33,523 nt of DNA from Dehalococcoidia bacterium (lineage in GTDB: Bacteria; Chloroflexota; Dehalococcoidia; GIF9; AB-539-J10), in the NCBI GenBank assembly GCA_029857995.1, contig JAOUFZ010000002.1:1-33523 (forward strand), given 5' to 3'. Within the stretch, counting starts at the first letter, position 1; every line of letters starts with the position of its first letter. The notes under the pieces were generated by a model. That model was not told the DNA's origin and made no database searches. It saw only the letters and a list, made by a program, of their open reading frames with translations. Both the position numbers and the translations under genes were made by a program. Positions 4,967 to 33,386 of this stretch are shown piece by piece.

Positions 4967-5554
4967 CTAAACACTTTTCTTACCATGAAACAATTCACTT
5001 CCGGCACCGGGGTATACTATACGCTTTGATGCGGGAGTAGATGTAGCGACCCCGGGCCATATTCCACTCTGCGGCTGCGGTCCCTCAAGTGTTATTCCTG
5101 ATGGTGCCCCATCTCTCATCTGAGGTTCTTTTCTGATGTTAACCCTCGCCACATTGTGTGAGAATTCGATAGGGATACCGTTTGGGTCATGGGCGTAAAT
5201 CGAGTGAATGAATCCGTGGTCAATAACGTCTGATACGGGAAAACCCGCGGCCTCTAGCTTGTCCTTCAGCGACCACAGGTCATCTTCCGTTTCAACACCG
5301 AAAGAGACATGGTCGAAGATGAAAGGGCCTCTAACCGGGCGTCCATGCTCCTTTTTGGCCACAGGCTTAACCCCAGCCCACTCAAAAAAGGCGATGAGGT
5401 CAGTCTCCGAAATCTCAAAAAAATAGTGTCGGTATCCCGGTTGCCCCAATCCGGCAACCAGACGCATACCCAGCAGGTCCCTCCAGAAACGTATGGTCTT
5501 GTCCATATCTCCTGTAGCCATAGCCAGGTGATTTACTCCATTAAAACTGACCAT
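4967..5554 (-). CDS. VOC family (glyoxalase/bleomycin resistance/dioxygenase fold) protein
   Basis: 195 aa; VNHLAMATGDMDKTIRFW...HYFFE...FDHVSFGV...HSIYAHDPNGIPIEF, typical paired beta-alpha-beta-beta-beta modules. Confidence 0.8.
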   Translation of the reverse strand: MVSFNGVNHLAMATGDMDKTIRFWRDLLGMRLVAGLGQPGYRHYFFEISETDLIAFFEWAGVKPVAKKEHGRPVRGPFIFDHVSFGVETEDDLWSLKDKLEAAGFPVSDVIDHGFIHSIYAHDPNGIPIEFSHNVARVNIRKEPQMRDGAPSGITLEGPQPQSGIWPGVATSTPASKRIVYPGAGSELFHGKKSV

Positions 5555-5582
5555 TTATGTATTCCTCCTTGCCATCTCGAAG

Positions 5583-6071
5583 TTATGCCCCACCCCTAAG
5601 TCTGCCTGCCATATATACCAGTTCACTGAGATGTTTCTTTTCCTCGCTGGTTATCACGTCTACGATTTCTTGATCCTGTCTGGGCATCATGCCCCTCATC
5701 TCTGAATAGAACAGAATAGAATCTTTCTCAAAAGCGATGCCAATTTCTAAGGCTTCTACGTCTGTAATCGATTTTCTCCTCAAGACAGTCTGTGCTCGTT
5801 CCCCAGCGAAGATACTGGTTTCAGCTAGGTCCCTGATATACTGGTAGTGTTCCCCAGTTTGCTTTTGGTAAGGTCGATAGCCACCAAGACGGGACAGCAT
5901 ATCATGAAAGTTATTCTCATGTTCCCTCTCCCGGGCAGCAAGTTTGGCAAAAACGTCCCCTATCTCTTTGTTTCTATTAAGTCGAGCTGCAACCTCGTAG
6001 AAGAAGCGTCCGTTCTTCTCGATCTCGATTGCCAATTCCAGAAATTCCTTACCGATTGATATTTCAGACAT
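5583..6071 (-). CDS. Ferritin-like / rubrerythrin-family diiron protein
   Basis: 162 aa; ELAIEIEKNGRFFY...AAREREHENNF...AFEKDSILFY...SEEKKHLSEL shows two E...ExxH-type half-sites. GGAGGTAGAAG SD. Confidence 0.8.
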   Translation of the reverse strand: MSEISIGKEFLELAIEIEKNGRFFYEVAARLNRNKEIGDVFAKLAAREREHENNFHDMLSRLGGYRPYQKQTGEHYQYIRDLAETSIFAGERAQTVLRRKSITDVEALEIGIAFEKDSILFYSEMRGMMPRQDQEIVDVITSEEKKHLSELVYMAGRLRGGA

Positions 6072-6096
6072 CTTCTACCTCCTTGAACTCTTTTCC

Positions 6097-6276
6097 TTAC
6101 TCATGGGAGTGGTGCTTGGCTGAAGATCCCTCACAGCACCCTGGCTCTCCCGGATGACCGCAACAGTTCTGTCTTCGCCAAATCTTTATGAAGTTGTTGC
6201 GAAACACTAGTTTGAGCTTTCTTCCCAGAGGCATGGGCACTGACATATTGGTGAAAAACGCTTTTACTGTTGGCAT
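6097..6276 (-). CDS. Small Cys-rich protein (59 aa, C-terminal CCGHPGEPGCC motif), function unknown
   Basis: AGGAG lies 8 nt before the internal ATG 6276 (MPTVKAFFTNMSV...); the longer track ORF (to 6339) lacks an SD. Sits between korB and the rubrerythrin-like gene on the same strand. Confidence 0.55.
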   Translation of the reverse strand: MPTVKAFFTNMSVPMPLGRKLKLVFRNNFIKIWRRQNCCGHPGEPGCCEGSSAKHHSHE

Positions 6277-6392
6277 ATTACAAGCTCCTAAGAATATTCC
6301 TTGTTCATCAACCCTAGGTAACGCTGCGTATTGCTTCATTTACTGACCTATTCTCATATCGGTCACCTTCCTATTGTCGAAATCACGTCGAC

Positions 6393-7244
6393 TCACATAA
6401 ACTCCGCCAGGAGTTTCTCAACTCGACGGGGGTCAATTATCTGTTTCACCAGCGGCCCCTCGCTCAGAGCCGGTAGCTGATCTTCGTAAACCAGCAAATC
6501 TCCTTTGTAGATGACCCCAATAGGAATCTTCTCTCCCCATTCAAGTGCCTTTTCTATTGCTGCCTTCTTGTCGCTGGGGTCATAGCTTTCGTCTTCCAGC
6601 TTATACACCCGTTCCGCATACCACTGGAAGGTATTTTTATGGTTGAACGAGATGCAGGGTTGCAGAATATCGATGAGGGCGAATCCCCGATGAGTAATAC
6701 CCCTTTTAATAAGGTTGGAAAGGTGGTCTATATCCCCGGCGAAGCCTCTACCGACGAAACTGGCACCGCTGACGATCGCCAGGGCGATAGGATTTACCGG
6801 GCTAGCTGCTCCGTAAGGCGTCGTCTTGGTGATAAAACCGACATCACTGGTGGGGGATGCCTGTCCCTTGGTCAGCCCATAGACCTGATTATTATGTACC
6901 AGGTAGGTAATATCATGGTTGCGACGGGCAGCATGGAGAAAATGGTTGCCTCCCTCGCCATAGGCATCCCCATCGCCGCTGATGGCGATGACTATCAACT
7001 CAGAATTGGCAATCTTGGCGCCGATAGCTGGCGGAACCGGTCTGCCATGCAGGGAGTTGAACACGTTGCCTCTGGTGTAGTGAGGTAGCTTGCCTGCCTG
7101 GCCGATACCAGAGACCAGTAAGACCTGATGAGGTTCAATCTCCATCTCAACCAGTGCTCTATTTAATGCCTGCAATATGCCGAAGTTGCCGCAACCTGGG
7201 CACCACGCCGGCTTCAGTCCAGCATAATCAGAGACTGTAACCAT
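6393..7244 (-). CDS. korB: 2-oxoacid:ferredoxin oxidoreductase, beta (TPP-binding) subunit
   Basis: 283 aa; WCPGCGNFGIL cluster/TPP motif and GDGD..GEGGNH TPP-Mg site. Starts 3 nt after the alpha subunit stop. Confidence 0.92.
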   Translation of the reverse strand: MVTVSDYAGLKPAWCPGCGNFGILQALNRALVEMEIEPHQVLLVSGIGQAGKLPHYTRGNVFNSLHGRPVPPAIGAKIANSELIVIAISGDGDAYGEGGNHFLHAARRNHDITYLVHNNQVYGLTKGQASPTSDVGFITKTTPYGAASPVNPIALAIVSGASFVGRGFAGDIDHLSNLIKRGITHRGFALIDILQPCISFNHKNTFQWYAERVYKLEDESYDPSDKKAAIEKALEWGEKIPIGVIYKGDLLVYEDQLPALSEGPLVKQIIDPRRVEKLLAEFM

Positions 7245-7246
7245 CT

Positions 7247-8962
7247 TTAGCCCCTCTCCTTTCTCACTGCTTGGGCGATAAAGGCTGGTGTAAAGGGCCG
7301 CCCATCGTATTTCAGGATTCGACCGCTAACATCATATCCCGTTTCTGCCTTCATGAGGCGGGCAAGCTGTCCCGTAGCATTGTTTTCAATGGCGTAGCTA
7401 TTTCGGGCCTTACTGACAGCATCGGCTACTGCCTTCGCCGGGAAAGGCCATAGTTCATTGAGGTGAAGCATATTGACGCTGGCGTCTTCCTTGCACAGGA
7501 TATCCACTGCCTCATGGATAGCTCCATAAGTGCTGCCCCAGCCTATAAGAGTTGTTTCCGCCTTTTTAGGACCGTACTTCTTTGGTGTGCCGATTTCCTC
7601 TTTAAGTGAAAAAAGCTTTCGCAGTCTTTTCTGCACCTGTGCCGTCCTCTCCCCAGCATCTTCCGTGAGGTGTCCTTCCTCATCGTGCTCGTCGCAGTCG
7701 GTGACCACCAGTGCCTTGCCCAGACCAGGGAAGGCTCGGGGAGAAATACCGGACTTTGTTACCCTGTGTCTCAGGTACTCCAAGGGGTCATCCTCTTTCT
7801 CTGAAAATAACATGCCGCGGTCGATGCTTACCTGCGAGAGGTCTAATGGGTCAACGGTGGCATAGGAGCTTGCCAGATGCTGATCGGTTAAAATAATAAC
7901 CGGCAGTTGATATTTTTCTGCCCAATTGAAAGCGTTGATCGTTACCCAGAAGGCATCTTCAATGGTAGCCGGTGCCAAGACAGCCCTGGGGAAGTCGCCG
8001 TGGTGGGCATGAAGCACAAACTGAAGGTCACCCTGTTCCGTTCGGGTGGGCAGGCCTACAGCTGGACCCGGTCGCTGCCCATCAATTATCACTATCGGTG
8101 TCTCAGTGATGCCCGCCAGCCCTATGCCTTCTACCATGAGGCAAAGGCCGCTGCCAGAGGTGGCAGTCATGGCCCTGACACCAGCGTAGGCAGCCCCAAT
8201 AGCCATGTTGATGGCAGCTATCTCGTCCTCAGCGTGGACCATTACCAAATCGAATTCTTTTGATTTGGCTGCCATATATTCCATGATAGAGCTGGCAGGG
8301 GTCATAGGATAGGCAGCCATGAATTTGCATCCTGCGGCAATCGCCCCCAGAGATATTGCCTCGTTGCCGGTGAGCAGCATTCTCTTAGCCTCAGAGAGGG
8401 GCTTGAGCTTACGAAGGTTGCCTTTCTGCTCAGACTGGACATAGTCGTATCCCGCCTTTGCCGCTGCAATATTCCTATCGGCAACTTCGCCCTTCCCGAA
8501 CCAGTCTACCAGAACCGTATTTAGTATGTTCAGATCATATTTTACCGCTGCCAGGACAGCACCGAGGGCCACGGTATTGATCATGAGCTTGGCTCCAGCC
8601 TTCTCCTCGGCCAGCTTCTCCAGCGGTATGCTGAAAAGGCTACCATTATTACCGCTGATTCCCTTTACCTTTTCTCCATCGAAAATGATAATGCCTTGAG
8701 TAACCATATTCGGTTGGTGCAATTCGATACTGTCCATGTTAAGTGCAATCAGTATGTCCACGTCTTCGGCAATGGCATCTACCTTGCCGTCACTGACTCT
8801 GACACGGAAGAAGTTATGTCCGCCTCTAACTCTGGACTCGTAATCCTGGTCAGCGAAGATATGGTAACCGCCGCGGGCAAAGACTTTAGCCAGCAGGAAT
8901 CCTACCGACTGCACTCCTTGTCCAGCTTCTCCGCCCACCATGAAATTAAAATCAACAGGCAT
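7247..8962 (-). CDS. korA: 2-oxoacid:ferredoxin oxidoreductase, fused gamma-alpha subunit
   Basis: 571 aa. N-terminal gamma-like domain (GGEAGQGVQSVGFLLAKVFARGGYHIF...RGG), then alpha domain (AAYPMTPAS...TATSGSGLCLM). Confidence 0.9.
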   Translation of the reverse strand: MPVDFNFMVGGEAGQGVQSVGFLLAKVFARGGYHIFADQDYESRVRGGHNFFRVRVSDGKVDAIAEDVDILIALNMDSIELHQPNMVTQGIIIFDGEKVKGISGNNGSLFSIPLEKLAEEKAGAKLMINTVALGAVLAAVKYDLNILNTVLVDWFGKGEVADRNIAAAKAGYDYVQSEQKGNLRKLKPLSEAKRMLLTGNEAISLGAIAAGCKFMAAYPMTPASSIMEYMAAKSKEFDLVMVHAEDEIAAINMAIGAAYAGVRAMTATSGSGLCLMVEGIGLAGITETPIVIIDGQRPGPAVGLPTRTEQGDLQFVLHAHHGDFPRAVLAPATIEDAFWVTINAFNWAEKYQLPVIILTDQHLASSYATVDPLDLSQVSIDRGMLFSEKEDDPLEYLRHRVTKSGISPRAFPGLGKALVVTDCDEHDEEGHLTEDAGERTAQVQKRLRKLFSLKEEIGTPKKYGPKKAETTLIGWGSTYGAIHEAVDILCKEDASVNMLHLNELWPFPAKAVADAVSKARNSYAIENNATGQLARLMKAETGYDVSGRILKYDGRPFTPAFIAQAVRKERG

Positions 8963-9300
8963 TAATCGCCTCCAGATTGACTCTTCTTATGTTTGTCGAT
9001 AACCTCATCCACCCACTTCATGGCAGCAATCATTGTGGGGAACCCTGCCGTAGTAAATGCTAGGAGCACAGCGTGGCGAAGCTCCTCGGCGGTCATGCCT
9101 TCCTCAAGCGCTCGCCGGGCATGTGACTTTACCCCACCTTCTGAACTCAAGCCAATGGCAATGCCCAGCTTTATCAGTCGCCTTGCTTTTTCATCCAACG
9201 GCCCCCAGTCATGACATTTGACGGCTAGTTCGTCATAGGCTTTAGCTATCTCAGGAAATTGGTGCTTGAATCCTTTGTAGATATCCGGCAAATAAGTCAC
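8962..9300 (-). CDS. Carboxymuconolactone decarboxylase / AhpD-like family protein
   Basis: GGAAGGAGA SD lies 6 nt before GTG 9300 (VTYLPDIYKGF...). CMD-type helices ...LDEKARRLIKLGIAIGLSSEGGVKSHARRALEEGMTAEEL. Its stop overlaps the korA ATG (TAATG). Confidence 0.8.
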   Translation of the reverse strand: MTYLPDIYKGFKHQFPEIAKAYDELAVKCHDWGPLDEKARRLIKLGIAIGLSSEGGVKSHARRALEEGMTAEELRHAVLLAFTTAGFPTMIAAMKWVDEVIDKHKKSQSGGD

Positions 9301-9463
9301 GGTACATCTCCTTCCAGTCAAGGCCTATGGCCATCCAAAGAGCATTAACGACGGAACTGACTGTATGATCACCTCCTGGGTTCTAAAATTGCCTTCATGC
9401 TCTGCTCCTCAGCAACAATGTCTCCAAGTAAGACAGACATAGTCATCTCTGATAAACGCTTCG

Positions 9464-9859
9464 CTATGACATCTTGATTTCTTTGCTTGACTGCCAAAGA
9501 CCGTGGATATTGCACAATGCACTGGCGTAGATAACCCCGGGCTTGCCCGTCTTCATCGACAAGCTGACTTCATGCTGAGTGTATATTGAGCTTTTATCCG
9601 GTCCCTCTACCGATTCCCCGTGGGCGGCAAACTCAAAGTGCCCTATCTGGTAGGTAAACTTTTCCCCGTCCGGGTGGAAGTAAACCGAAATCCATCGGAT
9701 ATGGTATTCGGTTGTATTGGGATGAGCTATCTCTTTCCCCAGAGTTACCTTCACCGGAAAGAACTCACTGGCTTTCACTTTGTCCGCGCACTCTATTACC
9801 GGGACATGCTTCTCCATCTTCCAGTCCGCGCTTTGAAAAAGTCCTCCAAATTGTTTCAT
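9464..9859 (-). CDS. sor: Superoxide reductase, 1Fe type (neelaredoxin)
   Basis: 131 aa. EKHVPVIE, KEIAHPNTTEYHIRWI and CNIHGLW iron ligands. Near-collinear with the Pyrococcus-type SOR as I remember it. Confidence 0.92.
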   Translation of the reverse strand: MKQFGGLFQSADWKMEKHVPVIECADKVKASEFFPVKVTLGKEIAHPNTTEYHIRWISVYFHPDGEKFTYQIGHFEFAAHGESVEGPDKSSIYTQHEVSLSMKTGKPGVIYASALCNIHGLWQSSKEIKMS

Positions 9860-9912
9860 TCCATTCCCTCCTCCCTAGATATCTGCACATATTTTGATCT
9901 TCTTATATTTGC

Positions 9913-10428
9913 CTATATGCCGGGTACGCACCCAGGTGCTCTGACCATTAATACGGGAACACAACTGGCTCTGAGGACTTTGTCGGCAACGCTGCCATAA
10001 GCCCAGCGACTCGGGCCGGAGCGGCCGTGACTGGACATGACAATAATGTCAGCACCATTTTGCTCTGCGTAAGAAGCAATCGCCTCAGCAGGAGGCCAAA
10101 AGAGCACCTCCGTGTGTACCTTGACTCCTTTAGATTCCAATTTCTCGGCTATCCTGCCGAGATACCTTTCGGCCTGCTTCTCTTTCTTGCCGAATGCTTC
10201 CGGTACAAGTCGTTGAAGTGGTGGCTGGATGGAGCTCCCCCAGCCACCACCTGAGCGAATAAATGGCTCGGTTGAGCCCTTGACTGCTCTATAGCCTTGA
10301 ACGCGCTCAGTGACACTGACCAATATGACCTCTGTTGTGTCGCAGCCCTTAGCCAATTCTTCTGCATGAGGAAGTGCGCACTCGGCCAATTTAGAGCCAT
10401 CCAGCGCAACCAAGATCTTTTTGTACAT
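9913..10428 (-). CDS. Universal stress protein (UspA family), paralog 1
   Basis: MYKKILVALDGS...VMSSHGRSG...GSVADKVLR...[21 protein letters not shown]. Confidence 0.9.
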   Translation of the reverse strand: MYKKILVALDGSKLAECALPHAEELAKGCDTTEVILVSVTERVQGYRAVKGSTEPFIRSGGGWGSSIQPPLQRLVPEAFGKKEKQAERYLGRIAEKLESKGVKVHTEVLFWPPAEAIASYAEQNGADIIVMSSHGRSGPSRWAYGSVADKVLRASCVPVLMVRAPGCVPGI

Positions 10429-10449
10429 CTTTGACCTCTCTTTTCACTT

Positions 10450-10965
10450 TCAAATGCCGGGCACACAGCCCGGTGCTCTAATCATTAACACCGGGATGCA
10501 ACTGGACCTCAGAACTTTGTCGGCAACACTGCCATAGGCCCACCGGCTTGGACCGGAGCGACCATGGCTCGCCATGACAATCAGGTCACATCCATACTGT
10601 TTAGCGTAGCCGACTATTGCCTCGGTAGGTTTCCAAAGAAGTACCTCTGTACTTACATTGATTCCCTTGGCTGCCAGGGTTTTAGCTATTCTGTCAAGAT
10701 ACCTCTGTGCCTGCTTCTCTTTCTTGCCGAATGCTTCCGGTACAAGTCGTTGAAGTGGTGGCTGGATGGAGCCCAGCCAGCCACCCCCCGAGCGAACGAC
10801 TGGCTCGGTTGAGCCCTCAACTGCTCTATAGCCTTGAACGCGCTCGGTAACACTGACCAAGATGACCTCTTCCGTGCCACAGCCTTTAGCCAACTCTTCC
10901 ACATGAGGAAGTGCAGACTCAGCCAACTTGGAGCCATCTAATGGAACTAGAATTTTCTTGTACAT
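10450..10965 (-). CDS. Universal stress protein (UspA family), paralog 2
   Basis: GGAGGG SD before ATG 10965 ([12 protein letters not shown]...). Roughly 80% identical by eye to paralog 1, with a 63-nt identical tract. Same APGCVPGI tail. Confidence 0.9.
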   Translation of the reverse strand: MYKKILVPLDGSKLAESALPHVEELAKGCGTEEVILVSVTERVQGYRAVEGSTEPVVRSGGGWLGSIQPPLQRLVPEAFGKKEKQAQRYLDRIAKTLAAKGINVSTEVLLWKPTEAIVGYAKQYGCDLIVMASHGRSGPSRWAYGSVADKVLRSSCIPVLMIRAPGCVPGI

Positions 10966-10985
10966 CTTGCCCTCCTTTCCTTGCT

Positions 10986-11450
10986 CTAAATACCAGGCAC
11001 ACAACCTGGCGCTCTCACCATCAAAACTGCCACACAGGCGGAACGAAGAACCTGGTCAGCCACACTACCCCAGGCCCAGCGACTTATACCGGAGCGTCCG
11101 TGTGTGGCGATGGCGATCAGATCCATTGAGTTTTTGGTAGCATAGTCAGCGATGCTTTCCCCTGGTGTGCCGGTTATTACTTCTGGCTTGACGGATACTC
11201 CTTCATATCGAGTCCGTTTGATCAGCTGGCTCAGGTAGCTCTCCGCAGCCGCTTTATTATCTACATCAATGCTATTTATAGTTTCCTGGCTGAGACAACC
11301 GTCATAGTCGCAGAACTGGTGAAAAGGCTCGTGCACGCGGAGAAAAATAACTTCTTCCACCCCACACCCTTTTGCAACAGACTCCACGTGAGGAAGTACA
11401 CACTCCGCCAGTTCCGAGCCGTCCAATGGCACCAAAATCTTCTTGTACAT
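10986..11450 (-). CDS. Universal stress protein (UspA family), paralog 3
   Basis: [16 protein letters not shown]...ATHGRSG...GSVADQVLR...[20 protein letters not shown]. Lacks the about 20-aa insertion found in paralogs 1 and 2. Confidence 0.9.
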
Positions 11451-11550
11451 TTGGACCTCCTTCTGATATTTTTACACGATTGGTCTGATACAGCTCAGGT
11501 TTGCATTTTTGTTCCTAGCATGTAATTCCCTCCTTCTGACATATCCTGAT

Positions 11551-12069
11551 TCATAGTAAAGCCTCGATTATTGCCTTATTGAATTTCGGCAGGTCAGCAG
11601 GTTTACGCGCGGTTATGATATTGCCATCCCTGACCACCGGCTCATCAACCCAGATAGCGCCGGCATTTTTCAGGTCTACCGCTACCGAAGGCCATGAAGT
11701 TACACGGCGCCCTTTGACTATATCGGCTGAGATCAGAAGCTGGGGGCCGTGGCAGATTGCGGCTATTATCTTGCCCTCAGCATGCGCCTTCCGTATCAAA
11801 TCAACCATCGGCTGGTGCAGGCGCATCTTGTCCGGAGCATAGCCGCCGGGGACAATTATGGCATCAAATTGACTGGCTTCAACCTTATCGGCCGTTGTGT
11901 CTACCGTCACCTTGGCCGAGCCTCTCTTTCCTGTGTAACTTCTCTTCGAGCCGCTGCCCACAATTAGCACACTAGCACCTGCGTCTTTCATCGCTCGCAG
12001 CGGTTCCGTGAACTCGGAGTCTTCAAAATCTTCCTCAGCCAGAATGGCAATGTGCTTTCCCGCAAGCAT
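11551..12069 (-). CDS. DJ-1/PfpI family protein (type 1 glutamine amidotransferase-like intracellular protease/deglycase)
   Basis: 172 aa; nucleophile elbow AAICHGPQLL and VPGGYAPD. AAAGGAGA SD. Confidence 0.9.
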   Translation of the reverse strand: MLAGKHIAILAEEDFEDSEFTEPLRAMKDAGASVLIVGSGSKRSYTGKRGSAKVTVDTTADKVEASQFDAIIVPGGYAPDKMRLHQPMVDLIRKAHAEGKIIAAICHGPQLLISADIVKGRRVTSWPSVAVDLKNAGAIWVDEPVVRDGNIITARKPADLPKFNKAIIEALL

Positions 12070-12739: not shown

Positions 12740-13438
12740 TCAGGCAGAAGGCACGTCCATCATGTAGCCTGTCTTAGGTATCGTACGAATGAGCTTGGGA
12801 CTATCAGGTTCACTTTCTATCTTTTCTCTTAGCCGGCTAATCCATGTGCGCAGTATCTGTACATCGTCCCGATACTCAGGCCCCCAGATTCGTGTTAGAA
12901 GGTCACTATAAAGTATGAGCTTCCCGGCATTCTGGGCAAGCTCACTTAGTAGAAGCCATTCGATGCGGGTCAAGCGAGTTTCTTTCCCTCGCAAAATAAC
13001 AAGGTGCTTTTTGAAATCAATGACTAAATCACCCAGAGAAAGTTGATCACGGATTTTCCGTGTCCCATCTGGTGTTAGGCGCCGCCTCACCGCCTCAATT
13101 CGTGCCACCAATTCATCGGGGTTGAAAGGCTTGGCCAGATAGTCATCGGCACCAAGGGTAAGCCCCTTTACCTTATCTGCGTTTGTTTCCTTAGCGCTGA
13201 GGATGATAGTTGGTATTGGGGAAAAGGTGCGGAGTTCTTTCAACGTCTCAAAACCGTCCTTTTTGGGCATCAAGATATCAAGTATCACCAGGTCTGGCTC
13301 CTGCGTTTGTACCTGCTCCAAAGCCTTTACGCCATCGCTGGCGGTAAAAACCTCATAGCCTGAGGCTTTCAGCTTGGAGCTGAGGAAGTTCAGAATACGT
13401 TGCTCATCATCGACTACTAGGATACGAAACTGTCTCAT
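12740..13438 (-). CDS. OmpR/PhoB-family response regulator (receiver plus winged-helix)
   Basis: 232 aa; ILVVDDE, DLVILDILMPKKDG, ILSAK and C-terminal trans_reg_C motifs (LTRIEWLLLSEL...RTWISRLREKIE...IRTIPKTGY). Confidence 0.92.
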   Translation of the reverse strand: MRQFRILVVDDEQRILNFLSSKLKASGYEVFTASDGVKALEQVQTQEPDLVILDILMPKKDGFETLKELRTFSPIPTIILSAKETNADKVKGLTLGADDYLAKPFNPDELVARIEAVRRRLTPDGTRKIRDQLSLGDLVIDFKKHLVILRGKETRLTRIEWLLLSELAQNAGKLILYSDLLTRIWGPEYRDDVQILRTWISRLREKIESEPDSPKLIRTIPKTGYMMDVPSA

Positions 13439-13547: not shown

Positions 13548-13592
13548 ATGAACAATTGACCTGATTAGTAGAGTGATACAAGGAGGATGCCA

Positions 13593-15650
13593 ATGGAAGA
13601 TGAACTTAGAAACAGTGGTATTGATGTGCTTGGCGCCGTACCCTGGGGTACCCACTTCTGTCAGTTTTATAAGACCAAGCAGGACCTAATTGACACACTT
13701 GTCCCTTATTTCAAAGCAGGCTTAGAGAGTAATGAATTCTGCATGTGGGTTACTTCTGAACCACTCATGGTAGCCGAGGCACAAGGGGCCATCAGAGCAG
13801 CAGTTAGTGATTTCGATAAGTACCTGCGTGAAGGACAGATAGAGATAATCCCGTACAGCCAATGGTATCTGCTGGGGGGCACTTTTGATGATGACCGCGT
13901 GCTCGCCGGCTGGATCAGCAAGGTAGAGCAGGCTCTGGCCAGAGGCTATGACGGGCTGCGGCTGACGGGCAACACCTTCTGGCTGGAAAGGAACCAGTGG
14001 CATAGTTTCACGGAATATGAGTCTAAGGTGAACAACATAATCGGTCGGTACCGGATGATAGCAGCGTGCACCTACAGCCTCGATAGATGTGATGCCGCCG
14101 CTGTACTCGACGTGGTCAAGAACCATCAGTTCGCCCTGATTGAACACGAAGGCAAGTGGGATATCATCGAAAGTGCTATCTACAGGCAAGCAAAACAAGC
14201 ATTGGCAGAGAACGAACAAAATCTGAACAGTGCTCAGGCTGTAGCTCATACCGGTAGCTGGCGTCTGGATGTCCAGCGCAACCAGCTTCTGTGGTCCGAC
14301 GAGACTTACCGAATCTTCGGCATCCCCAAGGGAATGCCTATGACTTATGAAACTTTCCTCTCAAGCGTTCACCCTGAGGATCGGAAATACGTTGACCGGA
14401 AATGGATGGCGGCTCTTCACGGCGAGCCATACGACATTGAGCACCGTATCATTGTGGACGATGAAGTGAAGTGGGTTTGCGAGATGGCCGAACTAGAGTT
14501 CGATTCAAAGGGTGAGCTTAAAGGCGGTTTTGGAACTGCTCAGGACATCACCAAGCGCAAACAAGTGGAAGATGAACTCAGAGTCAAAGCCTTCGCCGTT
14601 ACTTCATCTGCCAGTGGCATTGCTATTACGGACCTGGATGGCATTGTGACCTATGTGAATCTTGCCTGTCTCAGCATGTGGGATTATGAACAAGAAGAAG
14701 AGGTGCTTGGTAAGCATGCTATCAACTTCTTTGCAGATAAGAATGAGTTTGGTGTGACGCTGAAGGCAGTCTTGAAGGAAGGTGTGTGGCAGGGCGAAGC
14801 CAAGGCTAGGCAGAGTGATGGGTCAACTTTTGATGTGCTGGTCTTGGCAAACCTGGTTGCCGATGCTGATGGCAAACCCTTCTGTATGATGGCTTCCTTT
14901 GTGGATATCACCGAACGTAAAAGACTTGAACAACTTAAAGATGAGTTCATTGGACTCGTATCCCATGAATTGCGGACGCCATTAACTGTAATCGGCGGCT
15001 GTTTGAGTACTTTACTCACCGAGCGAACTCGCTTGTCACCAACTGATGTAAAGCAACTAACCAAAGATGCCCTTCTAGAAACCGAGGCTCTCTCTCAACT
15101 GATAGAAAACCTGCTGGAGCTTTCACGAGTACAGGCTCAGAAACTGGCTCTTTACCTGGAACCAATTGACATCAAAACCCTGGTTAGAGATACGCTATCC
15201 AAGATAAAACGGCAAGTCACTGGACGCCGGTTCGTTACTTCTTTCCCTGACAAGCTTCCGTCAATAAGCGCCGACCCATTAAGGATTGAACGAGTACTGT
15301 ATAACCTGCTGGACAACGCAGCCAAATATTCTCAGCCGGGCACTCAGATAAAAGTCTCAGTTAATCCAGAGCCAGAGCGTCTGGTCATAGGAGTCAATGA
15401 TCGGGGTAGAGGTCTATCCCCCAGTGAGCAGGCTAGAATCTTTGGCCCATTCCAGCGCCTTGAGAATAACAGGCCTGACCAGACCAGAGGGGCTGGGCTC
15501 GGCCTGATGGTTTGCCTGAGATTAGTGGAAGCCCATGGTGGGGAAATGTGGGTGGAGTCTAAAAAAGGCAGGGGGTCAACCTTTTTCTTCAGTCTGCCCC
15601 GTAGAAAAGGAACAGATGCAGGTAAGGTTAGCCTTGACACAGCAAAATGA
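13593..15650 (+). CDS. Sensor histidine kinase: MEDS-like N-terminal domain, two PAS/PAC domains, HisKA, HATPase_c
   Basis: AGGAGG at 13581-13586 favours the second ATG (13593). N-terminus HFCQFYKTKQDLIDTLVPYFKAGLESNEFCMWV resembles MEDS. PAS/PAC region (WSDETYRIFGIP...HPEDR...DITKRKQ). H-box SHELRTPLT. N/G boxes (LDNAAKYS, DRGRGL, GLGL). No predicted TM segment. Confidence 0.9.
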   Translation: MEDELRNSGIDVLGAVPWGTHFCQFYKTKQDLIDTLVPYFKAGLESNEFCMWVTSEPLMVAEAQGAIRAAVSDFDKYLREGQIEIIPYSQWYLLGGTFDDDRVLAGWISKVEQALARGYDGLRLTGNTFWLERNQWHSFTEYESKVNNIIGRYRMIAACTYSLDRCDAAAVLDVVKNHQFALIEHEGKWDIIESAIYRQAKQALAENEQNLNSAQAVAHTGSWRLDVQRNQLLWSDETYRIFGIPKGMPMTYETFLSSVHPEDRKYVDRKWMAALHGEPYDIEHRIIVDDEVKWVCEMAELEFDSKGELKGGFGTAQDITKRKQVEDELRVKAFAVTSSASGIAITDLDGIVTYVNLACLSMWDYEQEEEVLGKHAINFFADKNEFGVTLKAVLKEGVWQGEAKARQSDGSTFDVLVLANLVADADGKPFCMMASFVDITERKRLEQLKDEFIGLVSHELRTPLTVIGGCLSTLLTERTRLSPTDVKQLTKDALLETEALSQLIENLLELSRVQAQKLALYLEPIDIKTLVRDTLSKIKRQVTGRRFVTSFPDKLPSISADPLRIERVLYNLLDNAAKYSQPGTQIKVSVNPEPERLVIGVNDRGRGLSPSEQARIFGPFQRLENNRPDQTRGAGLGLMVCLRLVEAHGGEMWVESKKGRGSTFFFSLPRRKGTDAGKVSLDTAK

Positions 15651-15854: not shown

Positions 15855-15930
<76 letters not shown>

Positions 15931-25739: not shown

Positions 25740-26375
25740 TTATGCTGAGGGCAGGAGAAAGTGTTTCAGTTGGGTCAAATCGCTAAGAGATTCCTGATGG
25801 TTTTCCCCCGACCTGTCAATATAGAAAGCATTTAGGCCAGCCTGCCGGGCATTGAGGAAATCAAACTGCCAGTTATCACCGATGTGGATGACCTGGCTGG
25901 GCTTGACGCCCATCTCTTCACATATCCTGAGGTAAAAATCAGGGTTTTTTACCTGTCTATAGTGAGAAATGGAAGAAAAAATTCGAACGAAGTAAGGTTT
26001 GATATCTCGGAGTAAGCAATGTAGTAGCTCTAGCGACGTACCTGAGGCAACGATCAGCTTATATTCGCTGGCTAAGGATGAAAGGACTTCAATTATCTCA
26101 GGATAATAGGATATCTTACTCAGGCAAGTTTGTATCACCGGCTCAGAAGAGCCCAAATCGAGACAGCTAAACCAATATTCGATATCATACCATTCCAGTC
26201 TATGGTCACCGACCTTGTTGTACTCGTCAGTAATACACTGCTTGGCTTGAGCAAGGTCAAGTCCCTTCTTCTTAGCGTAAAGCGCAGGGATGGCCTCGTG
26301 CCATATGGTCTCGCTGAAATCAGGTGTTACCAGTGTCCCCTCTGCATCAAAAGAGACTACTTCAATTTGCGTCAT
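25740..26375 (-). CDS. HAD-superfamily hydrolase
   Basis: 211 aa; motif I FDAEGTL, motif II VASGT, motif IV IGDNWQFD. Confidence 0.85.
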   Translation of the reverse strand: MTQIEVVSFDAEGTLVTPDFSETIWHEAIPALYAKKKGLDLAQAKQCITDEYNKVGDHRLEWYDIEYWFSCLDLGSSEPVIQTCLSKISYYPEIIEVLSSLASEYKLIVASGTSLELLHCLLRDIKPYFVRIFSSISHYRQVKNPDFYLRICEEMGVKPSQVIHIGDNWQFDFLNARQAGLNAFYIDRSGENHQESLSDLTQLKHFLLPSA

Positions 26376-26418
26376 TTTGAAATACCGATATTATCATGGC
26401 AAAGAGGCAAAAGTCTAT

Positions 26419-26447
26419 TTGCCTGTTTCCCTTCTCCACGATAAAAT
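26419..26447 (+). promoter_or_regulatory. Sigma70-like promoter (TTGCCT-N17-TAAAAT) placed for a leaderless radical SAM transcript
   Basis: The -10 ends 7 nt before ATG 26455, and no SD lies between them. Confidence 0.5.
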
Positions 26448-26454
26448 ACGCAAA

Positions 26455-27618
26455 ATGCCAAATCATTCAGTGACAGAAAAGCTGAGTCACACCTTCGAGC
26501 TAGGTCCTATCAGACCTCCCAGTGAAGCTTATTCTCTCTTGATAAGGGCGACCAGGAATTGTCCGTGGAATAGATGTCAGTTCTGCCCGGTATACAAGGG
26601 TAGCAAGTTTGAGCTGAGGGCAGTGGGGGAGATTATCAGGGATATTGAGGTAGTTAAGGCCATCAGCGAAGGTATCAAAGAAATGGCGTGGAAGGCAGGC
26701 TATGGGGACAGAGCAAGAGAAATGGCAGCGATGCTCTGTAATCAAGCCCAATATGGCCCATGTGTGGGTCATGTTGCTCAGTGGCTTGCGACAGGAGGCA
26801 AGACCGCCTTTCTCCAGGATTCTAATACCCTTATCATGCGCACTCCCGAGCTAATTCAAGTAATTACCTTGCTGAGAAAAACCTTTCCCAGCCTAAATAG
26901 AGTGACTACATATGGTCGGTCCCATACTGCAGCCAGAAAGTCGTTAGCGGAATTGAAAGACATCAAGGAGGCTGGCCTAGATAGGATTCACATCGGACTC
27001 GAGACCGGCTATGACCCTCTGTTGGCTTATATGGAGAAAGGCTGCACTGCCGAGAACCACATTGAAGGTGGGAAGAAGGTGAAAGAAGCGGGCGTTTCTC
27101 TGTGCGAATATGTTATGCCTGGGCTCGGGGGCAAGAAAATGTCTCAAGAGCATGCCCGGGAAACAGCCAGGGTGTTAAACGAGATTGCCCCCGATTATAT
27201 CAGGCTGCGCAGCCTCCACATCTCTCCGACTATGCCGTTGTGGGCTAAATTACAGGACGGAGATTTTGAACTGCAAACGGAGGATGAGGTGGTAAGAGAA
27301 ATAGCCGTTTTCATCGAAAACCTGCGGGTTACCGGCTATCTCAAAAGCGACCACATACTCAACTTATTGATGGAGGTAGAGGGCAAGATGCCGGAGGACA
27401 AGGAGAAATGCCTCAATATCATAGATAGGTATTTGTCTCTGCCGGATGAAGAAAGGCTCAATTTCAAAGTCGGCAGGCGGGCTGGTTTATATGATGGGCT
27501 AGGTGACCTCAGTGATAGCTACAAACATGACAGAATAGACCAAGCCATAAAACATCTCAAAGCACAGGGCAGCGATGTTGAAGAGGAGATACTCAGGCTG
27601 AAGAATAGCTTTATCTAG
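26455..27618 (+). CDS. Radical SAM superfamily protein, uncharacterised subfamily
   Basis: Start taken at ATG 26455 (MPNHSV...), because the longer track ORF overlaps the divergent HAD gene. Cys triad NCPWNRCQFC (CX4CX2C as read), then ...FLQDSN... and GLETG motifs consistent with a TIM-barrel rSAM core. Confidence 0.8.
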   Translation: MPNHSVTEKLSHTFELGPIRPPSEAYSLLIRATRNCPWNRCQFCPVYKGSKFELRAVGEIIRDIEVVKAISEGIKEMAWKAGYGDRAREMAAMLCNQAQYGPCVGHVAQWLATGGKTAFLQDSNTLIMRTPELIQVITLLRKTFPSLNRVTTYGRSHTAARKSLAELKDIKEAGLDRIHIGLETGYDPLLAYMEKGCTAENHIEGGKKVKEAGVSLCEYVMPGLGGKKMSQEHARETARVLNEIAPDYIRLRSLHISPTMPLWAKLQDGDFELQTEDEVVREIAVFIENLRVTGYLKSDHILNLLMEVEGKMPEDKEKCLNIIDRYLSLPDEERLNFKVGRRAGLYDGLGDLSDSYKHDRIDQAIKHLKAQGSDVEEEILRLKNSFI

Positions 27619-27749
27619 TGGGAGAATCGTGGCAAGAGGATTTGTCAACCTGAATCGTTTCAAGCATGGGCGGGCCATAAAGCGGACCAGCAAACAACAC
27701 ACCGATTTACAGAGTAAGAGAAAGACCAGAGGGAAGGAGGTTAAATTTA

Positions 27750-28109
27750 GTGGCTAGGATAAATGAACTTACCTTTGGCTCTACAGTAATCGAGGGCAGG
27801 AAATACCGCAGAGATGTTCTCATTTTTGCGCACGGCCCGGTGAAGAAGCGGAGAGGCGGCTTTTTGATGTTCGGCAGCCACGAAATTAAGGAACGAGAAC
27901 TGGAGGAATTGAGCCCCCGGCAGCCTGAAGTGATAATTGTCGGTACCGGAACAAATGATGCTGCTCCTATAGCCGCCGAGGCGGAATGCTGGGCTAAGGC
28001 AAACAATGTAAGGTTACTGGTTGAGCCGTACTATGACGCCATCGTCAAGCTGAATGAACTTATCGAACGACACAAGAAGGTTGCTACCCTGATTCACATA
28101 ACCTGCTGA
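27750..28109 (+). CDS. Mth938-like (DUF498/NDUFAF3-like) domain protein
   Basis: 119 aa; FGSTVIEGRKYRRDVLIF...PEVIIVGTGTND...L. GAAGGAGG SD 9 nt before GTG 27750. Confidence 0.65.
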   Translation: MARINELTFGSTVIEGRKYRRDVLIFAHGPVKKRRGGFLMFGSHEIKERELEELSPRQPEVIIVGTGTNDAAPIAAEAECWAKANNVRLLVEPYYDAIVKLNELIERHKKVATLIHITC

Positions 28110-29055: not shown

Positions 29056-29607
29056 CTAAAGTTCTTTCAAATCTGATTCACATGACCTGCGCAATCTTGG
29101 ACTCTGTTCAAACTCGCCCCTCCCCAAGACGACAAGCACAATTGCTGCTATCGCAAGAGGCACGTTCAAAAGCACTGGAATAAACATAAGAGAGAAGATC
29201 GCACAAATAGAACCCGCAAGGGCCAGTCGCCACCTCTTCCTCTTTAAGGCAAAAACACCGCCCACTATGGCTACTATCCCAGTTGCTATCGCGATTGCAA
29301 ACACAGCTGCGACGATTCCACCCAGACCAAGCAACTCACGCATTGCCACCACAGCAATCGTTACCCACTGAGTTACACCTCCAACTCCAGCAACAATAGC
29401 TAGAATTCCGGCGGTTCTCGTCTTCCACGTCTTCCCTCTTGTTGCCTCGGCTAGTCGTACACGGCATTCGGTACAGATTTCAGTCAGGGGCGTTGTTGGA
29501 GCACCACACCGAGGGCAAAAACTGGTGCCAGCCATTGGCTTAGTTCCACAACTGACACAAGTTTCTGAAGCCGCTGTTAACTCTTTGCCGCAATTTCTGC
29601 AAAACAT
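29056..29607 (-). CDS. Double zinc-ribbon plus multi-TM membrane protein (paralog family 1)
   Basis: MFCRNCGKEL..CVSCG..FCPRCG..ICTECR gives four CxxC pairs, followed by 4 predicted TM segments and the conserved GGVFALKRKRWRLALAGSIC ... VLGRGEFE. Confidence 0.8.
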   Translation of the reverse strand: MFCRNCGKELTAASETCVSCGTKPMAGTSFCPRCGAPTTPLTEICTECRVRLAEATRGKTWKTRTAGILAIVAGVGGVTQWVTIAVVAMRELLGLGGIVAAVFAIAIATGIVAIVGGVFALKRKRWRLALAGSICAIFSLMFIPVLLNVPLAIAAIVLVVLGRGEFEQSPRLRRSCESDLKEL

Positions 29608-29852
29608 CACCTACTTCCCTTGCAGGCACTGGTGACTATCATTTCTGAATGAGCTTGCGTCCTTTCCGTCCTTAGAGTCTTTCAAACAAGATTCAGTAGT
29701 TGCCCGATTCATCAGGCACAATCGCATAACAAATTCTCACCCAACCAAATCTCTTGCTTGGTTGGCAACCCGGGGGTCTCACAAAATCCACGAGTTTTGC
29801 CATGTATCATAACTTGGGCAACCAGTCTAATACACATAGCTTGGAGGGAGTC

Positions 29853-30359
29853 TTACTCGAATTTCCCCTTCCCCAAAACGGTAAATACGATGGCCGGGAT
29901 GCCAAAGAGTATAGCAGGCGCCACAAGCGGTAATCCGATAGCAAAACCACAAATTGCGCCCGCTAGCGCGAAACCCCAGGCCCTCTTTCTGATGGCGAAG
30001 ATCCCGCCTACTATAGCTACTATGCTAAGAATGATCATCGGGGCGCCTATTAATGCACCCAAGCCAGCTACAAAAAAAGTCAGAAATCCTCCGACTACTG
30101 CCGAGATCATTCCAATAATCAGGCCAGGGACCCCGACAACCAAGTCCAGAATTCCCGCAGTCACTGGCATCCAGGCGCCACCTGTCGCCGCTGCTTTCGG
30201 TGCCACCTTAACGCCGCACTTAGTGCATATCTCCGTCATAGGAGTTGTTTGAGCACCACATCCAGGGCAAAAACTGGTGCCAGCCATTGGTTTGGCTCCA
30301 CAATTCATGCAGAATTCCGGACTGCCGGTTAACTCTTTACCACAATTTCTACAAAACAT
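29853..30359 (-). CDS. Double zinc-ribbon plus multi-TM membrane protein (paralog family 1)
   Basis: MFCRNCGKEL..CMNCG..FCPGCG..ICTKCG; TM module with GGIFAIRKRAWGFALAGAIC ... VLGKGKFE. GGGAGA SD. Confidence 0.8.
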   Translation of the reverse strand: MFCRNCGKELTGSPEFCMNCGAKPMAGTSFCPGCGAQTTPMTEICTKCGVKVAPKAAATGGAWMPVTAGILDLVVGVPGLIIGMISAVVGGFLTFFVAGLGALIGAPMIILSIVAIVGGIFAIRKRAWGFALAGAICGFAIGLPLVAPAILFGIPAIVFTVLGKGKFE

Positions 30360-30426
30360 TGTCTCCCTTCTTAAAAGGCTTTCTTAGCAACCACTATGCA
30401 GCCAATAATCTGCAGAATCTTAGACT

Positions 30427-30744
30427 TTACTTAAATTCGCGCTTACCCAAGGCGACGAATATAATGGCGAGTATCCCAAGAATAAACCAGGGACCAATGA
30501 GTGCACAGATAGACCCGGCAAGCGCCAGTCCCCAAACCCTTCTTCTTAAGGCATAGATACCACCTACTATCGCAATTACCCCAAATATGATTAACGGGGC
30601 GCCAATGGCACCAAGCCATCCCATCCCAATAAATGCACCCACAAAGCCAGCTACTGTGGCAAATATCGTGCCGAAAATCACCTGAAGAGCTCCTGCAATA
30701 ATGCCCAGTATGCCTGCGGTTGTCGGCTTCCATGTTTTTTCCAT
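30427..30744 (-). CDS. TM-only member of paralog family 1 (no zinc ribbon)
   Basis: 105 aa; KTWKPTTAGILGIIAG...GGIYALRRRVWGLALAGSIC...ALGKREFK. AAGGAGGG SD. Confidence 0.75.
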   Translation of the reverse strand: MEKTWKPTTAGILGIIAGALQVIFGTIFATVAGFVGAFIGMGWLGAIGAPLIIFGVIAIVGGIYALRRRVWGLALAGSICALIGPWFILGILAIIFVALGKREFK

Positions 30745-31330: not shown

Positions 31331-32677
31331 TCAACCAAATTCCTTGACCATATAAGCGCCTTCCAGACGATAACCAAGGGAGCGGTAATACTCCCGGGCA
31401 CCGACACCGCTAAGGACCGATAACCTATCAGCCTTGGATTCCTCCCTGGCGATTCTTTCTGCCTCTCGGACCAACCTTTCGCCGAGGCCATGATGTTGAG
31501 CGCCTTGCTCTAGCCTTGTGCCCAGAGGAACTTCAGGACCAAAAATGTGTAGCTCCCTGACTATTGCTTTTTCCTCATTCACTCTCAACCTCAGCAAGCC
31601 GAACAATGTTTCATTCTCATCCTCGTACGAGAGGAAGATCTCTTTACCCCCCAGGGTTTCATAATCCAACCTGGTTAGCTGAGGCCCACCAATTAACCAA
31701 CCGTCCCTTCGGCGATGCCCATATTCACGGCAACGAATACAGTTACAGCGAACACCTGCCTGTTCCATCTTTTTTCTAATAGTCCCTCTCAGTGCTAAAT
31801 CCCGGCTGCCGGCAATGATGAATTTGCTGGGAATGTCCCGCATCAACCTGGAAATCCTCACGTATTTGGGAATCAAAATCTTGATAGCTACGAGCGAATC
31901 GATCATTACCTCATCACAATAGGGCTGATAGCGATTATCTCGATACCAAGTCTCTAACTCACTCCCCCGAACTACCAGCGTGGGGTAAAGCTTGAGCCCA
32001 TCCGGCCGAAAACGCGCGTCTTCAAACAGTTGCCGCGACAGCTCCAGATCATGCTCAGGCGTTGACCCCGGTAGACCAGGCATCCAATGATAGTAGACCT
32101 TAAAGCCACGGTCTCGTAATAGCCTGGTCGCAGAGATGACTTCAGCTACTCCGTGTCCCCTTTTTGTCAGACAATGAATCTCATCATCCAAAGTCTGTAC
32201 CCCGAGTTCCACCCTGGTGGTGCCGAAATCAAGCATCCGCCTTATCTCTTCCTCGCCGCAGAAGTCAGGTCTCGTCTCGATGCACAATCCTACGCAGCGG
32301 TGTTCAGTATTCTCATTCAATTTCTTGGCTTCCTGTAGACTGCTGGAAGTGATGCCGGTCAAAGCATCGTAGCAGTCCTTAATGAACTGATACTGGTAGT
32401 CCTGGGGATAATACAGAAAAGTGCCCCCCATAACGATAAGCTCTACCTTGTCCCGGGCATGTCCCATTTCGGCCAGTGTCTTGAGTCTGATCTCAACTTG
32501 TTTTTTGGCGTCAAACCCACAACTTCGAGCTCGGAGCACTGCAGGAGACTCCGCGGTATAGCTCTTGGGCGCCTCGGGGGAACTCGGGCAATAAACACAT
32601 TTACCGGGGCAGGGGAACGGCTTGGCCATAACTGCTACCGGGGTTACTCCGGAAATGGTTCGAGATGCTTTCTTCAT
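31331..32677 (-). CDS. elp3: Elp3-type radical SAM / GNAT acetyltransferase (tRNA U34 carboxymethyl-modification enzyme homolog)
   Basis: 448 aa. N-terminal SGVTPVAVMAKPFPCPGKCVYCP cluster motif, rSAM core (...ELGVQTLDD...), and C-terminal GNAT with acetyl-CoA motif QHHGLGERLVREAERIA. Same short architecture as the Dehalococcoides Elp3 as I remember it. Confidence 0.9.
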   Translation of the reverse strand: MKKASRTISGVTPVAVMAKPFPCPGKCVYCPSSPEAPKSYTAESPAVLRARSCGFDAKKQVEIRLKTLAEMGHARDKVELIVMGGTFLYYPQDYQYQFIKDCYDALTGITSSSLQEAKKLNENTEHRCVGLCIETRPDFCGEEEIRRMLDFGTTRVELGVQTLDDEIHCLTKRGHGVAEVISATRLLRDRGFKVYYHWMPGLPGSTPEHDLELSRQLFEDARFRPDGLKLYPTLVVRGSELETWYRDNRYQPYCDEVMIDSLVAIKILIPKYVRISRLMRDIPSKFIIAGSRDLALRGTIRKKMEQAGVRCNCIRCREYGHRRRDGWLIGGPQLTRLDYETLGGKEIFLSYEDENETLFGLLRLRVNEEKAIVRELHIFGPEVPLGTRLEQGAQHHGLGERLVREAERIAREESKADRLSVLSGVGAREYYRSLGYRLEGAYMVKEFG

Positions 32678-32711
32678 GGAATAATATGTTAAAGTTTACC
32701 AGAGTGTGTAT

Positions 32712-33386
32712 ATGGCCACAAACAGAGAAGTTTTCGACCAAATAGCCGAAAGCTGGTATCGGGTAAGGCATTGGCCCCTACTAAGAGAAGAGCTGGATGC
32801 CTTAGCAACAAGATGGCAAACCGGCAAGCTGCTAAATGTCGGCTGTGCTCACGGCCCCGATTTCTTGCCTTTCAGTCAGGGGGTCGAACTCTGGGGGGTG
32901 GATTCGTCCCCTGCTATGTTGAGGCAAGCTAGCAGGTATTCGGCCAAGTTCAAGTTTTATGTCAACCTGGTAGCTTCTGATGCGTTATTCCTGCCTTTCC
33001 GCGATAATACCTTCGATTGGGCAATATCAGTGGCCACCTACCACCATATCAAAGGCAGAGAACAGAGGGAAAAGGCATTCGTCGAATTAAAGCGGGTATT
33101 AAAGCCCGAGGGAAAGGCCTTTGTAACTGTGTGGAACCGGGGACAACCAAGGTTCTGGTTCAGGTCAGAAGAGCAACGAGTGCCCTGGAGACTGAAGGAG
33201 AAGACGGTTTACCGCTACTATCACTTGTTCTCTTATGGCGAGTTACGAAAGCTGCTAGTCAAAACTGGCTGGCAAATCATTAGTATGTCACCAGAGAAGT
33301 CCTACCATTTCCCTATAGGAGATTTCTCACGGAACATATGTGCCCTGGTAAAGAAGCAAGGCACCGCTCCGACTTCAGTTGTGTGA
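32712..33386 (+). CDS. Class I SAM-dependent methyltransferase, Trm9-like
   Basis: SAM motif LLNVGCAHG, LPFRDNTFDWAISVATYHH, FVTVWNRGQ, QRVPW and YRYYHLFSYGEL parallel yeast Trm9 blocks (DVGCGNG, FDFAISIAVVHH, WALEQ, VPW, YRYYHLYREGEL). Start is ATG 32712 (or GTG 32706). Confidence 0.8.
   Translation: MATNREVFDQIAESWYRVRHWPLLREELDALATRWQTGKLLNVGCAHGPDFLPFSQGVELWGVDSSPAMLRQASRYSAKFKFYVNLVASDALFLPFRDNTFDWAISVATYHHIKGREQREKAFVELKRVLKPEGKAFVTVWNRGQPRFWFRSEEQRVPWRLKEKTVYRYYHLFSYGELRKLLVKTGWQIISMSPEKSYHFPIGDFSRNICALVKKQGTAPTSVV

Follow-up and report, generated by a model that had tools for sequence, protein, structure and literature searches.

Elp3 is established in archaea and eukaryotes as the enzyme that forms 5-carboxymethyluridine (cm5U) at the wobble uridine, U34, of tRNA, and eukaryotic Trm9 acts downstream of it, on the cm5U that Elp3 has made. 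Here, we describe what is probably a bacterial counterpart of this arrangement: an Elp3 gene and the gene of a Trm9-like class I methyltransferase, which stand back to back in a Dehalococcoidia bacterium. The pair sits in the last 2.2 kb of the stretch of DNA that we analyzed, 33,523 nt of contig JAOUFZ010000002.1 (GCA_029857995.1), which we refer to as the window. From the sequences of the two genes, we consider it reasonably probable that they form a two-gene module of archaeal type, in which Elp3 makes cm5U34 and the methyltransferase makes 5-methoxycarbonylmethyluridine (mcm5U34).

Bacterial MnmE/MnmG(/MnmC) modifies the same target, C5 of U34, and serves the same wobble-decoding purpose, but its enzymes and chemistry are unrelated to those of the Elp3 route. 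MnmE/MnmG follow an aminomethyl route that depends on folate and flavin adenine dinucleotide, whereas Elp3 carries out a carboxymethylation with radical S-adenosylmethionine (SAM) chemistry and acetyl-CoA. The eukaryotic Trm9-Trm112 enzymes (yeast Trm9 and the methyltransferase domain of human ALKBH8; structure 5cm2) share with the window methyltransferase the class I SAM fold and the catalytic and substrate-binding residues. The window protein differs from them in being bacterial, in its low identity to eukaryotic Trm9 (~23-29%), in having phenylalanine in place of Y18 and in lacking the insertions of Saccharomyces Trm9 and ALKBH8.

Closer in gene organization are the archaeal systems. The Elp3 gene of Sulfolobus solfataricus clusters with a Trm9 orthologue, and in Haloferax volcanii HVO_1032-Trm112 is associated with mcm5U (PMC6144793; PMC5372719). 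These archaeal systems and the window have in common a stand-alone Elp3, without Elp1, 2, 4, 5 and 6, that is clustered with a Trm9 gene; the host is archaeal in one case and a bacterium of the class Dehalococcoidia in the other. According to a 2017 review, Trm9 occurs among archaea only in Sulfolobales and Halobacteriales, and no genes resembling Trm112-dependent methyltransferases are detectable in bacteria (PMC5372719). The described bacterial protein closest to ours is the Elp3 of Dehalococcoides mccartyi (DmcElp3; 5l7j, 5l7l and 6ia6). The window Elp3 aligns with it from end to end and belongs to another Dehalococcoidia lineage, which is uncultured, and D. mccartyi has the same divergent methyltransferase neighbor. 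This neighbor is not discussed in the Elp3 papers that we consulted, the 2016 paper of Glatt et al. lying outside that scope. Within the searchable literature, there is no paper linking Trm9 with Dehalococcoidia and no description of a bacterial mcm5U route through Elp3 and Trm9; nor did it offer anything of use on MnmE/MnmG (GidA) in Dehalococcoides. What was already known, then, is the presence of Elp3 in Dehalococcoides and the TRM9 label that automated pipelines attach to homologs of its neighbor; the bacterial pair of Elp3 and a Trm9-like enzyme is, within that literature, new.

Elp3 and its Trm9-like neighbor

The two genes begin on opposite strands (Table 1), with the Elp3 ATG at the complement of 32675-32677 and the methyltransferase ATG at 32712-32714. 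An in-frame GTG at 32706 would lengthen the methyltransferase by two residues; since its homologs begin at the ATG position, we have taken the ATG as the start. A sequence-only reading of this DNA had described an open reading frame (ORF) of Elp3 architecture and a 224-aa methyltransferase whose starts lie 34 nt apart on opposite strands, and the coordinates, motifs and family matches agree with it. It had also spoken of a 'divergent bacterial Elp3', which is right for the orientation of the genes and wrong for the sequence of the protein.

Table 1. Coordinates of the gene pair and its spacer, in window positions
Feature	Positions	Strand	Length and basis
Elp3, radical-SAM and GNAT domains, predicted tRNA U34 carboxymethyl (cm5U) synthase	31331-32677	-	448 aa; TIGR01211, Pfam and 5l7j match
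Spacer with conserved palindromic element	32678-32711	.	34 nt; element at 32687-32701
Trm9-like class I SAM methyltransferase, predicted cm5U34 -> mcm5U34	32712-33386	+	224 aa; 5cm2_Z match, fold, residues

The Elp3 ORF carries the three-cysteine cluster motif CPGKCVYC and unites the Pfam domains Radical_SAM (PF04055), Radical_SAM_C (PF16199) and the GNAT domain Acetyltransf_1 (PF00583) in one polypeptide. It scores 566.6 bits against the NCBIfam model TIGR01211 (ELP3; cut-off 350), with a match that begins at model position 57, and its alignment with crystallized D. mccartyi Elp3 (5l7j; 618 bits, E 8e-185) pairs residues 1-446 with 1-457. The acetyl-CoA and active-site residues are kept in this alignment, within the segments DKVEL, VRELH, QHHGLG and GAREYYRSLGY; the residues described as functionally important in DmcElp3 are K77, E386, Y441 and QHxGxG (PMC6367351). 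As in DmcElp3, the N-terminus is short and has no basic extension, which makes the window protein an Elp3 of the short bacterial form. By sequence, the protein is an Elp3 typical of Dehalococcoidia.

The neighboring methyltransferase contains all the motif blocks that the sequence-only reading had ascribed to Trm9, namely VGCAHG, FDWAISVATYHH, VWNRGQ, VPW and YRYYHLFSYGEL. Among its 26 sequence matches in the Protein Data Bank (PDB), the best is the Trm9 of Yarrowia lipolytica (5cm2_Z, E 5.7e-15, residues 18-197). The alignment is full-length in extent and reaches the C-terminal VPW and YRYYHL segment, while the other matches, with PH0226 and 2p8j next in rank, cover the Rossmann core only. 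An AlphaFold model built on a 55-sequence alignment has a predicted local distance difference test score (pLDDT) of 91.2, a predicted template modeling score of 0.89 and a Rossmann-type strand order; a model based on an 18-sequence alignment (~80% identity) reached a pLDDT of 35 and was discarded. When the accepted model was compared with the PDB by Foldseek, 5cm2_Z again ranked first (E 8.4e-16, template modeling score 0.83, root-mean-square deviation 3.1 Å). The 150 closest cluster representatives from a library of 1.84 billion proteins include proteins resembling eukaryotic Trm9 (such as P0226, 40% identical to the Yarrowia protein). Many homologs are labeled 'tRNA (uracil-5-)-methyltransferase TRM9' by the Joint Genome Institute (JGI) and a good share 'UbiE', and the NCBI label is 'class I SAM-dependent methyltransferase'.

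The active site provides a more specific comparison. In yeast Trm9, residues R29, D72, H116, W145, W168, R241, Y243 and N271 are needed for mcm5U formation, and H115 contributes (Létoquart et al., PMC4678810). All nine are conserved in the window methyltransferase, where R29, D72, H115/H116, W145, W168, R241, Y243 and N271 correspond to R19, D64, H111/H112, W141, W159, R168, Y170 and N208. The seven from D64 to Y170 were placed through a HMMER alignment and checked against the Yarrowia numbering; R19 and N208, which this alignment does not reach, were assigned from an ungapped alignment of motifs and from conservation in the family. The mapped residues are invariant or nearly so in the Dehalococcoidia methyltransferases. 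In a 48-sequence alignment of the family (mean column identity 34%), the invariant and near-invariant columns largely coincide with the functional positions of Trm9. A signature of 11 positions, made up of the nine residues together with F8 and Q145, is identical in 78 of the 82 Dehalococcoidia methyltransferases introduced below and is essentially retained across all 165 related loci that we examined for it and for Trm112. Judged by its sequence and modeled fold, for both of which Trm9 is the top match, and by the active-site residues that it keeps, the methyltransferase is most likely a bacterial member of the Trm9 family, in line with the sequence-only reading, and probably does not belong among the small-molecule methyltransferases.

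Conservation of the pair and its spacer

To collect bacterial loci, we scanned one genome per GTDB species with a 9-sequence alignment of the methyltransferase, the 48-sequence family alignment having proved too diverse for scanning. This yielded 275 relatives, and the best 80 of them, nearly all labeled as Dehalococcoidia or Chloroflexota metagenome-assembled genomes, were combined with two metagenome loci to give a set of 82. Elp3 lies immediately upstream of the methyltransferase and divergent from it in 74 of these loci, and in four of the remaining eight less than 160 nt of sequence precedes the methyltransferase. Most spacers measure 30-280 nt. A single unrelated gene separates Elp3 and the methyltransferase in four loci, for example an MFS transporter (L071) or an HNH-like ORF (L049). 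In the closest locus (L003), synteny with the window extends over 9 kb, and Elp3 and the methyltransferase are 91% and 81% identical to those of the window.

The pair is also present in a complete genome of D. mccartyi (CP019867.1). Its Elp3 is 98% identical to the crystallized protein, and 43 nt away on the opposite strand lies a 224-aa methyltransferase that is 49% identical to ours and retains the signature. Bacterial Elp3 had been called rare in the sequence-only reading, with Dehalococcoides as the studied case; the gene is not confined to that genus, however, being common in metagenomes across the class Dehalococcoidia. As side observations on species labels, a locus attributed to D. mccartyi (L046, DYGU01000015.1) encodes an Elp3 only 61% identical to DmcElp3, against 98% in the true D. 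mccartyi, so that its label looks wrong, and mis-binning of Dehalococcoidia sequences would seem to account for a 3.6-kb contig labeled 'Calditrichales' (L063) and for an Elp3 labeled 'Bacteroidota' (P0475).

The pair outlasts the loss of all other synteny. The remaining genes of the window are common to at most 22 of the 82 loci: a HAD gene and a second radical-SAM gene are kept near the pair in 22 loci, zinc-ribbon membrane proteins in 15 and transketolase in 3. When the ORFs of these loci were clustered all against all, no other gene proved to be conserved along with the two. We also considered the HAD protein, DUF498, the second radical-SAM protein and the zinc-ribbon membrane proteins as members of the module, and rejected them because no more than 22 of the 82 loci share them.

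A second set of loci came from a metagenome scan with the methyltransferase subfamily around a Pacearchaeota-labeled protein and comprised 80 loci. Homologs of the window methyltransferase at ~35-43% identity include a protein labeled Candidatus Pacearchaeota by NCBI, and cluster labels point to Pacearchaeota (P0134) and Thermoprotei (P0220); one locus of the Pacearchaeota-type subfamily adjoins an archaeal-type pilin. The related subfamily, which has the same pairing, appears to stem at least in part from DPANN archaea. In about 25 of the 80 loci, the methyltransferase has a divergent Elp3 upstream of it, and these Elp3 proteins are 46-58% identical to that of the window. More distant methyltransferases with the Trm9 signature showed no linkage to Elp3 in their loci. 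Since the pairing recurs in 74 of the 82 bacterial loci and in some 25 of the archaeal-type ones, the adjacency is not due to chance, and the expectation of the sequence-only reading that it would be conserved is borne out. We call the module archaeal in type because the same divergent pair occurs in the DPANN-like subfamily and because clustering of Elp3 and Trm9 has been published for archaea. A co-transfer into Dehalococcoidia is plausible, and the pair may have entered this class as a unit.

The spacer itself holds a conserved feature, the palindromic, AT-rich element TGTTAAAGTTTACCA. On the top strand it reads TGnTAAAGT toward the methyltransferase and on the bottom strand TGnTAAACT toward Elp3, and so resembles two overlapping, outward-facing extended -10 elements. 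Its center, 32694, is the midpoint between the two start codons. The core AGT[CTG]TA[N]CA is present in 65 of the 69 distinct Elp3-methyltransferase spacers, whereas these loci overall have it about once every 12.9 kb on each strand. The element keeps a distance of 10-11 nt from the methyltransferase start in one group of loci, whatever the length of the spacer, and of 9-31 nt from the Elp3 start in the other group. Where a gene is inserted, it is placed so that both Elp3 and the methyltransferase stay downstream of the element. A consensus promoter scan of the region marked another, weaker site and not TGTTAAAGTTTACCA. By its sequence and position, the element is a candidate shared bidirectional promoter and possibly an operator.

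A putative mcm5U34 pathway and its alternatives

In the pathway that we favor, the radical-SAM and acetyl-CoA-binding domains of Elp3 would carboxymethylate U34 at C5, which yields cm5U. The methyltransferase would then pass a methyl group from SAM to the carboxylate of cm5U, giving the methyl ester mcm5U, a step that we infer because the active site of Trm9 is conserved; thiolation might then carry this product on to 5-methoxycarbonylmethyl-2-thiouridine (mcm5s2U). Both genes would be read outward from one short, symmetric promoter-like element, and such sharing would couple their expression. The sequence-only reading had proposed that the two enzymes act in one pathway, an mcm5U route of archaeal or eukaryotic type, and the likeness to Trm9, the conserved active site and the conserved adjacency all lend support to this proposal at the level of sequence.

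Several observations weigh against it, and the first of them concern the identity of the methyltransferase. Pfam gives only generic matches (Methyltransf_11, E 2.6e-18, followed by Methyltransf_25 and Methyltransf_23), and NCBIfam gives weak matches to UbiE/MenG-type models, all below the cut-off. The lead of Trm9 in Foldseek is about 20-fold in E-value, and other class I methyltransferases follow within 1-2 orders of magnitude. With a broad family profile, PH0226, which matches over the core only, comes just above Trm9 (104 versus 100 bits), and the D. mccartyi ortholog has Trm9 only in seventh place among its PDB sequence matches. To these may be added four loci of the bacterial set (L029, L030, L031 and L034) that have room upstream of the methyltransferase but no nearby Elp3, and about 10 archaeal-type loci of the same kind. 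In the four bacterial exceptions, the Trm9-like gene is 68-71% identical to ours and is preceded by 1.9-10 kb of sequence, L031 and L034 having 10 kb on both sides.

The matches to generic and UbiE/MenG-type models, the ranking of PH0226, the top PDB matches of the D. mccartyi ortholog and the 'UbiE' name given by JGI to a good share of the homologs could all be accommodated if the methyltransferase were an unrelated enzyme, UbiE/MenG-like and acting on a small molecule or some other substrate, that adjoins Elp3 through gene order inherited within one bacterial class. We regard this as quite improbable. The most conserved columns of the family are those of the mutationally defined Trm9 site, including C-terminal residues that are missing from the other PDB matches. 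Inherited gene order, moreover, fits poorly with a pairing that outlives the complete loss of flanking synteny and turns up again in a distant lineage of archaeal type, with Elp3 proteins that share about half of their residues with that of the window, or with a conserved element shared between both genes.

A further possibility is suggested by the chemistry. CmoM also makes a methyl ester on a U34 side chain. The window methyltransferase might thus be a functional analogue of this bacterial enzyme, methyl-esterifying uridine 5-oxyacetic acid (cmo5U), the product of CmoA/CmoB, and not the product of Elp3; a methyl ester of a carboxymethyl-type U34 side chain, made by a Methyltransf_11 enzyme, would be the same chemistry. 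Yet no chain named CmoM is found among the 26 PDB sequence matches, of which Trm9 is the first, and the conserved neighbor is Elp3, with no other gene conserved beside the pair, although no search was aimed at cmoA/cmoB in the flanks. This alternative seems to us highly improbable.

The remaining objections concern Trm112 and the product of the pathway. Eukaryotic and archaeal Trm9 require Trm112. A regular-expression motif and phmmer searches with YcaR and Saccharomyces Trm112 queries, which together make a weak test, detected no Trm112-like ORF in the window or the 165 related loci. Half of the hydrophobic positions that contact Trm112 (three of six) are charged in the window methyltransferase (K39, E59 and R97), which hints that the enzyme may be independent of Trm112. 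The position of Trm9 Y18 is occupied by F8, and that of H112 by H, N or C in distant members of the family. In yeast, the pathways to mcm5U and to 5-carbamoylmethyluridine (ncm5U) are reportedly intertwined. DmcElp3, which is without the basic N-terminus, binds tRNA weakly (PMC6367351; PMC7663514), and according to a 2020 review its activity in vitro is only weak and direct evidence for xcm5U34 derivatives is lacking in Dehalococcoides (PMC7663514).

These last points, from F8 and the variable H112 to a bacterial Elp3 product that has never been observed, would also suit a pair that acts on tRNA with an end product other than simple mcm5U: the ester might be converted to ncm5U or another derivative, a different group might be methylated, or Elp3 might act on a position or an RNA other than U34. 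We think this unlikely, though less so than the alternatives above. The residues that position the carboxylate and recognize the uracil in Trm9, equivalent to R29, H116, R241 and N271, are all retained, and neither an amidotransferase nor any other further gene is conserved alongside the pair. Our preferred reading thus remains the two-step route to mcm5U34. Its widest form, in which Dehalococcoidia including D. mccartyi, a model for organohalide respiration, would carry mcm5U/mcm5s2U instead of or besides the products of MnmE/MnmG, by means of an archaeal-type cassette with one bidirectional promoter and the first stand-alone (Trm112-free) Trm9, is a more tentative proposal, which we put forward as possible rather than probable.

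The surrounding genes and the significance of the pair

The other content of the window is the ordinary housekeeping of an anaerobe, with genes for oxidative stress, polyamines, ThiC, RNase PH and a split transketolase. A dense stress cluster at 4967-12069 encodes glyoxalase-like, rubrerythrin, AhpD/CMD-like and desulfoferrodoxin proteins, three tandem Usp genes (9913-11450) and DJ-1/PfpI, and flanks a two-subunit 2-oxoacid:ferredoxin oxidoreductase (6393-8962). It is followed by an OmpR-type response regulator (12740-13438, - strand), divergent from a MEDS-PAS-PAS histidine kinase (13587-15650, + strand), and, after the kinase, by the sole tRNA gene of the window, tRNA-Lys(CUU), at 15855-15930.

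Nearer to the pair, the region 25740-28109 holds the HAD hydrolase, an uncharacterized radical-SAM protein and DUF498, all of which about 22 loci have near the pair. An ORF of 442 aa at 26290-27618 shares 86 nt with the HAD gene; on public contigs with the exact methyltransferase of the window it is called at 399 aa, so its true start is probably downstream. Just downstream of Elp3, at 29056-30744 (- strand), lie three tandem paralogous genes for small membrane proteins (29056-29610, 29853-30359 and 30427-30744). A double zinc ribbon (MFCRNCGKEL...) is found at the N-terminus of two of these proteins, and the third consists of the transmembrane half only; they stand beside Elp3 in about 15 of the 82 loci. 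In one locus outside the window, on a DPANN-like contig (L083), a 377-aa protein with mTERF-like repeats (5811-6944, - strand; PF02536, E 1e-15) is encoded between Elp3 and the Trm9-like gene. Such repeats are best known from organelles.

The finding is of moderate interest because the pair makes the role of bacterial Elp3 directly testable. Bacterial Elp3 serves as a structural model for Elongator, and its conserved Trm9-like neighbor offers a concrete, testable answer to the question of its physiological product and partners. With two prokaryotic proteins that look soluble, the whole route from cm5U to mcm5U could be rebuilt in vitro and, if it is true that the methyltransferase works alone, it would show how Trm9 can function without Trm112. 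More broadly, bacteria would through this pairing have a second xm5U chemistry, and the pair is a candidate for a tRNA-modification module that is shared between archaea and bacteria.

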